From Escherichia coli (GTDB lineage Bacteria > Pseudomonadota > Gammaproteobacteria > Enterobacterales > Enterobacteriaceae): 64,000 nucleotides of DNA. The DNA is taken from the NCBI RefSeq assembly GCF_003334815.1, contig NZ_QOWO01000010.1, one strand, 5' to 3'. A model generated the notes under the pieces. That model was given only the letters and a program-made list of their open reading frames with translations. It did not search any database and was not told the origin of the DNA. Positions 24,582-26,796 of the stretch are shown here, in pieces; position 1 is the first letter of the stretch, and the number at the start of each line of letters is the position of its first letter. The translations under genes were made by a program, and so were the position numbers.

Positions 24582-26796
24582 GTTATTCTCTGCATTCAGA
24601 AAAAATAAAATCTGGGATTTCAACGGCGGCATCCATCCACCGGAGATGAAAACCCAGTCCAACGGTACACCCCTGCGCCAGGTACCCCTGGCGCAGCGTT
24701 TTGTTATTCCACTGAAACAGCATATTGGCGCTGAAGGTGAGTTGTGCGTTAGCGTCGGCGATAAAGTATTGCGCGGCCAGCCGCTTACCCGTGGTCGCGG
24801 CAAAATGCTGCCTGTTCACGCGCCCACCTCGGGTACCGTTACGGCTATTGCGCCCCACTCTACGGCTCATCCTTCAGCTTTAGCTGAATTAAGCGTGATT
24901 ATTGATGCCGATGGTGAAGACTGCTGGATCCCGCGCGACGGCTGGGCCGATTATCGCACTCGCAGTCGCGAAGAGTTAATCGAGCGCATACATCAGTTTG
25001 GTGTTGCCGGGCTGGGCGGTGCAGGATTCCCGACAGGCGTTAAATTGCAGGGTGGCGGAGATAAGATTGAAACGTTGATTATCAACGCGGCTGAGTGCGA
25101 GCCGTACATTACCGCCGATGACCGTTTGATGCAGGATTGCGCGGCTCAGGTCGTAGAGGGTATTCGCATTCTTGCGCATATTCTGCAGCCACGCGAAATT
25201 CTTATCGGCATTGAAGATAACAAACCGCAGGCGATTTCCATGCTGCGCGCGGTGCTGGCGGACTCTAACGATATTTCTCTGCGGGTGATTCCAACCAAAT
25301 ATCCTTCTGGCGGTGCTAAACAATTAACCTACATTCTGACCGGGAAGCAGGTTCCACATGGCGGGCGTTCATCCGATATCGGCGTATTAATGCAAAACGT
25401 CGGCACTGCTTATGCAGTGAAACGTGCCGTTATTGATGGCGAGCCGATTACCGAGCGTGTTGTAACCCTGACTGGCGAAGCAATCGCTCGCCCGGGCAAC
25501 GTCTGGGCACGGCTGGGGACGCCAGTGCGTCATTTATTGAATGATGCCGGATTCTGCCCCTCTGCCGATCAAATGGTGATTATGGGTGGCCCGCTAATGG
25601 GCTTTACCTTGCCATGGCTGGATGTCCCGGTCGTAAAGATTACCAACTGTCTGTTGGCTCCCTCTGCCAATGAACTTGGCGAACCACAGGAAGAACAAAG
25701 CTGCATCCGGTGTAGCGCCTGTGCTGACGCCTGCCCTGCGGATCTTTTGCCGCAACAGTTGTACTGGTTCAGCAAAGGTCAGCAACACGATAAAGCTACC
25801 ACGCATAACATTGCTGATTGCATTGAATGTGGGGCTTGCGCGTGGGTTTGCCCGAGCAATATTCCCCTGGTGCAATATTTCCGTCAGGAAAAAGCTGAAA
25901 TTGCGGCTATTCGTCAGGAAGAAAAGCGCGCCGCAGAAGCCAAAGCGCGTTTCGAAGCGCGCCAGGCTCGTCTGGAGCGCGAAAAAGCGGCTCGCCTTGA
26001 ACGACATAAGAGCGCAGCCGTTCAACCTGCAGCCAAAGATAAAGATGCGATTGCTGCCGCTCTGGCGCGGGTGAAAGAGAAACAGGCCCAGGCTACACAG
26101 CCTATTGTGATTAAAGCGGGCGAACGCCCGGATAACAGTGCAATTATTGCAGCACGGGAAGCCCGTAAAGCGCAAGCCAGAGCGAAACAGGCAGAACTGC
26201 AGCAAACTAACGACGCAGCAACCGTTGCTGATCCACGTAAAACTGCCGTTGAAGCAGCTATCGCCCGCGCCAAAGCGCGCAAGCTGGAACAGCAACAGGC
26301 TAATGCGGAACCAGAACAACAGGTCGATCCGCGCAAAGCCGCCGTCGAAGCCGCTATTGCCCGTGCCAAAGCGCGCAAGCTGGAACAGCAACAGGCTAAT
26401 GCGGAACCAGAAGAACAGGTCGATCCGCGCAAAGCCGCCGTCGAAGCCGCTATTGCCCGTGCCAAAGCACGCAAGCTGGAACAGCAACAGGCTAATGCCG
26501 AGCCAGAACAACAGGTCGATCCGCGCAAAGCCGCCGTCGAAGCCGCTATTGCCCGAGCCAAAGCGCGCAAACGGGAACAGCAACCGGCTAATGCGGAGCC
26601 AGAAGAACAGGTTGATCCGCGCAAAGCTGCCGTCGAAGCGGCTATTGCACGCGCCAAAGCACGCAAGCTGGAACAGCAACAGGCTAATGCGGTACCAGAA
26701 GAACAGGTTGATCCGCGCAAAGCGGCAGTTGCCGCGGCTATTGCCCGCGCTCAGGCCAAAAAAGCCGCCCAGCAGAAGGTTGTAAACGAGGACTAA
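24574..26796 (+). CDS. rsxC: Rsx complex subunit C (Fe-S, NADH-binding) with repetitive C-terminal extension
   Basis: 740 aa; N-terminal RnfC domain with two ferredoxin motifs, then Ala/Lys/Glu-rich 32-aa tandem repeats. Confidence 0.93.
26230..26720 (+). repeat. In-frame 96-bp tandem repeat array within rsxC (5 near-identical units plus a degenerate sixth)
   Basis: Units begin at 26230, 26326, 26422, 26518, 26614 (GATCCGCGCAAAGCCGCCGTCGAAGCCGC...); each encodes [29 protein letters not shown](Q/E)QV. Confidence 0.9.

Follow-up and report, generated by a model that had tools for sequence, protein, structure and literature searches.

An in-frame 96-bp repeat array in Escherichia coli rsxC encodes a conserved motif joined by variable spacers and is a candidate docking array

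In this work, we analyzed a 64,000-nucleotide stretch of an Escherichia coli genome (contig NZ_QOWO01000010.1 of assembly GCF_003334815.1; hereafter the window), in which the 3' part of the rsxC gene carries a tandem repeat that had been pointed out in an earlier note made from the sequence alone. The gene is accompanied by rsxA, rsxB, rsxD, rsxG, rsxE, and nth, and the open reading frames (ORFs) of this neighbourhood span 23422-29813. Its identity, as given in the earlier note, is confirmed by the NCBIfam equivalog model for RsxC (NF003454; 868.2 bits against a cutoff of 345, aa 12-570) and by RefSeq, which calls rsxC at loci 97-100% identical to this one (100% in K-12-type records); the TIGR01945 rnfC model also matches (596.8 bits, cutoff 245.95). 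Pfam domains cover the iron-sulfur and flavin mononucleotide (FMN) binding core and are limited to this core, and no Pfam domain was found on aa 445-740, in agreement with the placement of the repeat beyond the core. The core aligns to the solved RnfC chains 8ahx_C, 7zc6_C, and 9eri_C (E = 1.9e-121). Since the aligned part covers aa 15-498 at most (8ahx_C, from Azotobacter vinelandii, 496 aa), the repeats lie beyond any experimental structure. The coordinates of all features are listed in Table 1.

Table 1. Features of rsxC and its repeat array (positions in the window)
Feature	Position	Strand	Description
rsxC coding sequence	24574..26796	+	740 aa + stop; third gene of rsxABCDGE-nth
Catalytic core	24613..25863	+	aa 14-430; RnfC_N, Complex1_51K (FMN/NADH), SLBB, 2x[4Fe-4S] ferredoxin (Pfam)
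Conserved proximal tail	25864..26229	+	aa 431-552; long helix 431-482, then two helices (predicted)
Older motif copy, degenerate and positionally fixed	26044..26091	+	aa 491-506; weak motif-profile match, i-Evalue 0.055
Repeat unit 1	26230..26325	+	18-residue motif + 14-residue spacer; most divergent unit in DNA
Repeat unit 2	26326..26421	+	absent from the 708-aa allele of strain DXMF6-3R
Repeat unit 3	26422..26517	+	
Repeat unit 4	26518..26613	+	spacer variant, 14 residues
Repeat unit 5	26614..26709	+	spacer variant with E->V
Terminal 28-codon unit	26710..26793	+	distinct variant, final in all enterobacterial RsxC tails inspected
GAGGA Shine-Dalgarno of rsxD	26788..26792	+	inside the last rsxC codons AAC GAG GAC (N-E-D)

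Tandem Repeats Finder, applied to positions 24000-28000 of the window, detected a single array at 26230-26750 with a period of 96, 5.4 copies, 91% matches, zero indels, and a score of 818. The unit boundaries share the reading frame of rsxC (frame offset 0), and identity at an offset of 96 reaches 0.862, whereas 200 shuffles of the array codons gave a mean of 0.320 and a maximum of 0.376. The 96-bp in-frame repeat and its periodicity on self-comparison, as first described, are therefore both real. Five full 32-codon units, all opening with DPRK, are followed by a diverged sixth unit that is shortened to 28 codons and closes the ORF; the earlier count of five near-identical units and a degenerate sixth was correct, and so was the start of the array, although its end had been placed too early (at 26720), as it extends to the last rsxC codon, 26793. 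In enterobacterial tails the terminal unit is itself a conserved distinct variant, with a pattern ending in [AV]QA[KR]KAAQQ.VNE[DE]. Exact matches between units span 31-55 bp, the longest between neighbouring units being 55 bp. The array is thus a coding minisatellite, or protein variable-number tandem repeat (VNTR): its units lie head to tail, their length is a multiple of three, and strains differ by whole units. In addition to the array, one older copy of the motif is found upstream in the proximal tail (Table 1), where RnfC of Vibrio has DDAIAAAIARVKAQK at the equivalent position.

A scan of one genome per species, covering rsxC from 80 Enterobacteriaceae, revealed that each unit consists of two parts with very different behaviour. 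Complete proteins range from 612 to 782 aa and contain one to seven exact DPRK matches, or two to seven motifs when DSRK, DARK, GPRK, and DPRT variants are included (74 complete genes). When the tails were split at DPRK, the first 18 residues of every internal unit were essentially invariant, and the spacer after them differed in sequence and length between genera, being similar within one genome. Among 358 motif instances from 77 enterobacterial genes and that of the window, 249 are the identical 18-mer, which is encoded by 223 different DNA sequences, and all motif codons show synonymous alternatives. The spacers vary in length from 12 to 87 aa; 257 of them have a net charge of -2.9 +/- 0.9 and consist largely of Ala (26%), Glu (16%), Gln (16%), Pro (10%), and Val (10%).

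Selection was measured as Nei-Gojobori proportions of synonymous (pS) and nonsynonymous (pN) differences. Between species, the motif has a pS of 0.636 and a pN of 0.0062 (pN/pS 0.010), and the FMN domain of the same genes (codons 140-283) has a pS of 0.641 and a pN of 0.0505 (pN/pS 0.079); purifying selection on the motif exceeds that on the catalytic FMN domain. Internal units of one genome differ in the motif at a pS of 0.345 and a pN of 0.005. Within the K-12 array, the corresponding values are 0.354 and 0.010 for the motif, A5T in unit 1 being the sole nonsynonymous difference, and 0.186 and 0.054 for the spacer, where differences include L->R, Q->P, E->V, and Q/E. The earlier statement that units differ by synonymous or conservative substitutions alone therefore holds for the 18-residue motif and fails for the spacers. 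Because one 18-mer is encoded by so many DNA sequences at such a low pN/pS, the uniformity of the units results mainly from purifying selection on the peptide and not from recent origin. Homogenisation, which had been offered as an explanation of this uniformity, is partial and visible mainly in the spacers, whose identity is 0.69 within genomes versus 0.42 between species and 0.73 for adjacent versus 0.65 for non-adjacent units.

To trace the motif more widely, a profile built from 54 units was searched against 1.84 billion representative proteins (E <= 1e-3). A total of 199 matches were obtained; all those of at least 590 aa contain the RnfC core, and the shorter ones represent fragments of tails or gene calls with frame shifts. 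RsxC of Vibrio vulnificus (880 aa) is among the named members, together with proteins of Pseudoalteromonas (where one 90% cluster covers lengths of 820-890 aa), Alginatibacterium, Motilimonas, and Aliagarivorans. A Haemophilus influenzae fragment contains the 18-residue motif three times, and a metagenomic RnfC of 971 aa has 12-13 motif copies in an rnfABCDGE-nth operon; operons that encode the motif retain the order of the rnf genes and nth. A permissive regular expression was used to collect 90 instances from 19 divergent RnfC proteins; in these, every position of a 13-residue core is 82-100% conserved. Moreover, the Ala positions are fixed, and the choice between Lys and Arg is nearly fixed at most basic positions. 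Judging from this distribution, the motif is ancient, being shared by Enterobacterales, Pasteurellales, Vibrionales, and Alteromonadales, and within the proteins searched it was found only in RnfC/RsxC tails. The recent expansion proposed in the earlier note is not borne out, as the motif is shared with RnfC of Vibrio, Alteromonadales, and Haemophilus, and the units of K-12 already differ at a motif pS of 0.35.

The only apparent occurrence of the motif outside RnfC was rejected. This protein (P0195, at 226-846 of a metagenome contig) combines a Zn-ribbon N-terminus (PF13717/PF13719), an acidic linker, and two DPRK motifs, and is encoded directly upstream of rnfD-rnfG-rnfE-nth, without rnfABC. 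Its N-terminal half is 85% identical to Zn-ribbon/DUF3426 proteins of Thermodesulfobacteriota. The base composition of the contig shows no clear break; with a single contig of 3x coverage, a chimera is probable, and a real fusion is less likely.

Further examination of the physical character of the tail showed that the motif has a net charge of +4, which falls to about +1 per unit and to +7 for the whole 188-aa array. V7 and I11 are its only large hydrophobic residues, and on a calculated helical wheel A5, A9, A12, and A16 form a stripe opposite them, with Arg and Lys in between. The hydrophobic moment is 0.15, compared with 0.27 and 0.57 for the membrane-targeting helices of MinD and FtsA; a membrane-targeting amphipathic helix of the MinD/FtsA type was rejected on the basis of this low moment and the paucity of large hydrophobic residues. 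An AlphaFold2 (AF2) model of full-length RsxC, based on a 60-sequence enterobacterial alignment, predicts a 52-residue helix at 431-482, with a predicted local distance difference test (pLDDT) score of 50-85 in 10-residue blocks over 431-480 and a peak of 84-85 at 451-470, and further proximal-tail helices at 486-506 and 522-543. In the array, helices are predicted at 555-575, 586-607, 618-639, 650-668, 682-703, and 714-736 (block means peaking at 65-77), with intervening coils of roughly 10 residues whose pLDDT is below 50. The helical character suggested earlier for the 32-residue module is thus supported for about 21 residues of it; the helix is not continuous, as a coil of about 10 residues follows. 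Pfam, NCBIfam, and PDB sequence searches with the tail and the motif yielded no family and no structure. Separately, the C-terminal half of the motif (15 residues) resembles the WH2-like helix AAAIAGAKLRKVSKQEE of VASP; a WH2 or G-actin-binding helix was rejected, since this best PDB match (2pbd_V, E = 0.92, 12.6 bits) is at chance level.

Copy number was examined with a 2.2-kb query spanning the array against 5,426 complete E. coli genomes, from which an evenly spaced sample of 60 rows was inspected. The K-12 span was found in 36 rows (one with an additional 6 bp) and a span one unit shorter in 12; 11 alignments stop exactly at the array start, and one begins within the array. The alleles recovered comprise genes of 2127 nt (708 aa; strains DXMF6-3R, SCU-125, GF4-3, and IBS28), 2223 nt (740 aa; the window and K-12), 2229 nt (742 aa; JCM 5491), 2319 nt (772 aa; O157:H7 Gim1-1 and XJ34), and 2421 nt (806 aa; S21EC and M70, with the identical protein WP_000915728.1). 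As rough shares of the sample, whose rows are not phylogenetically independent, the 708-aa form accounts for about 20%, the 740-742-aa forms for about 60%, the 772-aa form for about 8%, and the 806-aa form for about 10%. Relative to K-12, the allele of DXMF6-3R lacks precisely unit 2 and nothing else; of its four other units, three (the third, the fourth, and the terminal sixth) are identical in DNA. The 806-aa allele has eight DPRK units, two of which are 33 aa long with QQQQ for QQQ, and its +6-bp signature occurs in about 10% of sampled rows; such 3-bp steps in a CAG/CAA run form a second, smaller layer of length variation that is also in frame. When the O157 allele served as query in a second BLAST sampling, many alignments were split, which made the rows unsuitable for counting. 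Going by published data of four to seven units in total, the E. coli range is about three to seven full units plus the terminal variant; marine relatives reach about 12-13 motifs.

The prediction that copy number differs among strains is therefore correct, and it had already been published (PMC13185298). The label hypervariable is not supported: alleles differ between lineages, yet no change of span was seen between either query (the K-12-type window or O157:H7) and the sampled rows at about 100% identity to it, and repeat type tracks multilocus sequence typing (MLST; PMC13185298). A contingency (phase-variable) locus was also considered and rejected, since the 96-bp unit keeps the frame and all alleles examined are full-length ORFs.

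Several database records bear on how such alleles can be counted. Most repeat matches in databases are "partial" fragments of 55-160 aa at contig ends (E. coli, Salmonella, Citrobacter, and Klebsiella), which implies that the array routinely breaks short-read assemblies and that copy numbers from draft genomes are unreliable. The "complete" chromosome record NZ_CP081008.1 (E. coli XL10-Gold) starts inside the array (1-383), and its rsxC is annotated as a hypothetical protein across the record origin, probably an assembly-closure artefact at the repeat. With at least one complete record affected in addition to the short-read assemblies, copy-number typing needs long reads or PCR. In one E. coli protein (P0013, from a 4.77-Mb contig), the gene call runs from RsxC units into IS1 transposase sequence, which suggests an IS1 insertion inside the array of one strain, truncating the tail and possibly affecting the downstream rsxD.

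The repeat polymorphism as first claimed is already known, the gene being annotated and the marker in use. For 83 E. coli genomes, Jothi et al. (BMC Genomics 2026, PMC13185298) reported a 32-aa DPRK unit with four to seven copies and seven repeat types in agreement with MLST, and used the repeat as an E. coli typing marker. Their counts include the terminal unit, so that K-12 is "R6" and the 806-aa allele would be "R8", beyond the reported range. A 40-aa unit with zero to five copies serves as a typing marker in Erwinia amylovora (Ham & Park, Sci Rep 2023, PMC10587187), and a related repeat was studied in E. pyrifoliae (Plant Dis 2024). These typing papers suggest a solenoid or toroid fold and assign no function. 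The literature searches yielded no function for the tail, in line with the earlier remark that the role of this extension is not obvious. A preprint that mentions rsxC (bioRxiv 10.64898/2025.12.18.695208) was set aside, as it concerns a Clostridium expression result and not the repeat.

Besides the array, other parts of the gene show features of interest. The proximal tail before it (about aa 435-552, 118 residues) is conserved in 60 orthologs, with many invariant residues. I525 (window 26146-26148) lies in this region and is nearly invariant in the same orthologs; the experimentally evolved allele rsxC-I525F acted like an rsxC deletion and was termed "null or neutral" (PMC4759930), which hints that the proximal tail matters for function. 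At the 3' end, the TAA stop codon (26794-26796) directly abuts the rsxD ATG at 26797, and GAGGA precedes the stop in each of the 73 complete enterobacterial rsxC genes examined. Translational coupling may thus account for part of the conservation seen in the C-terminal NE[DE]. At the other end of the gene, a PPE stalling motif located 16 nt upstream of a NusA-dependent intrinsic terminator has been reported, with EF-P-dependent read-through (PMC5021804). The HPPE sequence corresponds to aa 21-24 (window 24634-24645), and the mentions in that paper concern this 5' part and not the repeat.

Taken together, we consider it on balance probable that the tail consists of conserved helices of ancient origin linked by freely varying spacers, and that this array provides multivalent docking specific to Rnf/Rsx and is resized by whole units. 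A conserved short motif does alternate with unconstrained disordered linkers, as expected of a docking array. The repeats give RsxC, the cytoplasmic NADH/FMN/Fe-S subunit in the Rsx (Rnf-type) membrane complex, a modular tail at its C-terminus. A 32-codon unit consists of a sticker, which is a basic alpha-helix of 18-21 residues with the universal 13-residue core, and a spacer of some 10-14 residues, which is disordered, has a net charge of about -3, and is rich in Ala, Glu, Gln, Pro, and Val. Units would be gained or lost whole, by unequal recombination or replication slippage, without breaking the frame; both processes are plausible because the exact matches between units are adequate substrates. 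The helices may then act as multivalent docking sites on a flexible leash, with avidity or stoichiometry depending on how many stickers a tail carries. Fixed Ala together with nearly fixed Lys versus Arg favours recognition of the whole helix surface over bulk charge or hydrophobicity. Candidate partners are another Rnf subunit such as RsxB, a second complex, or a redox client. According to a review (PMC12174285), the C-terminal helix of A. vinelandii RnfC contacts RnfB and RnfH, which makes a partner within or between complexes plausible. Taken as a single step, docking to a conserved Rnf/Rsx-linked partner is what we infer, with less than even confidence. More tentative still, and in our view rather doubtful, is the stricter version in which a dedicated Rnf-specific helix binds one conserved partner, either a subunit from a neighbouring Rnf complex or a redox client (SoxR, ferredoxin, or flavodoxin, for instance), and the copy-number alleles (2-13 motifs) tune avidity, clustering, or throughput.

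Several points weigh against this interpretation. Literature searches found no binding partner for the motif, and those on the function, structure, and interaction of the RsxC/RnfC tail returned only the typing papers and the A. vinelandii helix; likewise, PDB sequence searches revealed no solved structure that holds the motif. The overall quality of the AF2 model is poor, with a mean pLDDT of 57 and core segments 1-40 and 293-434 below 50; it supports the helix/coil pattern only and gives no contacts that bear on docking. Motif counts and the position table depend on self-written regular expressions, so per-position percentages are partly constrained by the pattern. Moreover, copy number ranges from 2 to 13 motifs with no known phenotype, and dosage may matter little; PMC13185298 links repeat number with virulence or antimicrobial resistance (AMR) gene counts, but these correlations are confounded by lineage.

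Two alternatives, both of which we regard as unlikely, retain some merit. In the first, the basic helices would act as an electrostatic tether that holds RsxC or the complex to anionic phospholipids, or to nucleic acid, for example near DNA-bound SoxR or endonuclease III, by charge. The charge of the motif and the position of RsxC as a peripheral cytoplasmic subunit of a membrane complex suit this idea, as does the maintained gene order with nth, which encodes endonuclease III and is co-transcribed. Lys/Ala-rich repeats are also known to bind DNA in histone-like proteins. However, the near-neutral charge of the unit, left after conserved acidic spacers cancel most of that of the motif, and a hydrophobic moment well below those of MinD and FtsA argue against a simple membrane or DNA tether, and binding by charge needs neither fixed Ala nor a fixed choice between Lys and Arg, at odds with the observed pN/pS. 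In the second alternative, stickers would bind one another or the acidic spacers, as in a block polyampholyte, and so cluster Rsx complexes in patches of the membrane with no external partner. Alternating blocks of +4 and -3 are indeed conserved despite the free spacer sequence, the design is multivalent, and the Ala stripe opposite V7/I11 would suit tight helix-helix packing; AF2, however, gives moderate helix confidence with no sign of a packed bundle, and proteins with just two motifs, one internal and one terminal, occur.

A passive low-complexity extension is improbable, whether it serves as flexible spacer or entropic bristle or has arisen neutrally from slippage, with its uniformity due to recent expansion and homogenisation. 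It would account for the strain-variable copy number, the spacers homogenised within genomes, and the long exact matches between adjacent units, but it is strongly disfavoured by the motif pN/pS at saturating synonymous change, by conservation over four gammaproteobacterial orders, and by the synonymous divergence among the K-12 units. Still less credible is a fixed repeat fold, the solenoid or toroid suggested for the 40-aa repeats of Erwinia (PMC10587187), in which regular tandem units of 32-40 aa would pack into one domain: such a fold would constrain linkers and register, whereas spacers measure 12-87 aa, copies number 2-13, and the linkers are Pro-rich and predicted as coil at low pLDDT. 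Finally, it is hardly conceivable that the constraint acts on the DNA itself, as in a structured nucleic-acid element, or on an ORF that overlaps or runs antisense to rsxC. Stop-free frames do cross the array (26022-26720, - strand, 232 aa; 25594-26901, - strand, 435 aa; 26138-26785, + strand, 215 aa), and 54 of 74 species have one antisense frame open throughout, but open frames are expected from the GCN/CGN/AAA/GAA codon content and the third codon positions of rsxC vary freely (pS 0.64), which is incompatible with such a constraint.

The tail should not be taken for low-complexity sequence that drifts. Its repeated peptide ranks among the most constrained in the protein and is found only in RnfC, and the view of the locus has to be revised to that of an ancient, selectively maintained, RnfC-specific helix array in which spacers and unit count alone are free to vary. 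With the polymorphism itself already described, the remaining interest lies in a very strongly conserved motif of a model organism, in a complex with a role in SoxR reduction. If the docking and dosage reading is true, the rsxC VNTR would be a functional dosage polymorphism and not merely a typing marker. The question of why the tail is so long becomes testable: what binds the 18-mer, and does copy number matter?

Comparison with known systems helps to place the array. The typing papers deal with the same locus, the same 32-aa DPRK unit (in E. coli), and a variable copy number, and differ from the present analysis in having no division into motif and spacer, no measure of selection, and no tracing of the motif outside Enterobacterales. 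The C-terminal helix of A. vinelandii RnfC (PDB 8ahx; Zhang & Einsle 2024, as presented in PMC12174285) is likewise an extension past the ferredoxin domain. Its counterpart in the alignment is E. coli aa 445-498, which AF2 predicts as one long helix; the A. vinelandii chain (496 aa) ends there, without a DPRK array. Bacterial contingency loci share repeat-mediated length change within a coding region, but the rsxC unit of 96 bp (3 x 32) gives no on/off switching, and its alleles appear stable within sampled clones. The linkers of 2-oxoacid dehydrogenase E2 and domain II of TolA resemble the RsxC tail in composition, with Ala, Glu, Gln, Pro, and Val as in the spacers and Lys/Ala/Glu-rich helices; the tail shows no significant similarity to any PDB chain and matches no Pfam family, and the RsxC motif is a fixed sequence rather than a composition. 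EPYC1 and CsoS2 are built of tandem units, each with a short conserved peptide or helix for binding a folded partner; the linkers between the units are disordered and evolve fast, and species differ in unit number. The resemblance to these proteins is one of analogy only, with no sequence relationship, and the RsxC array is the tail of an enzyme subunit instead of a dedicated scaffold.

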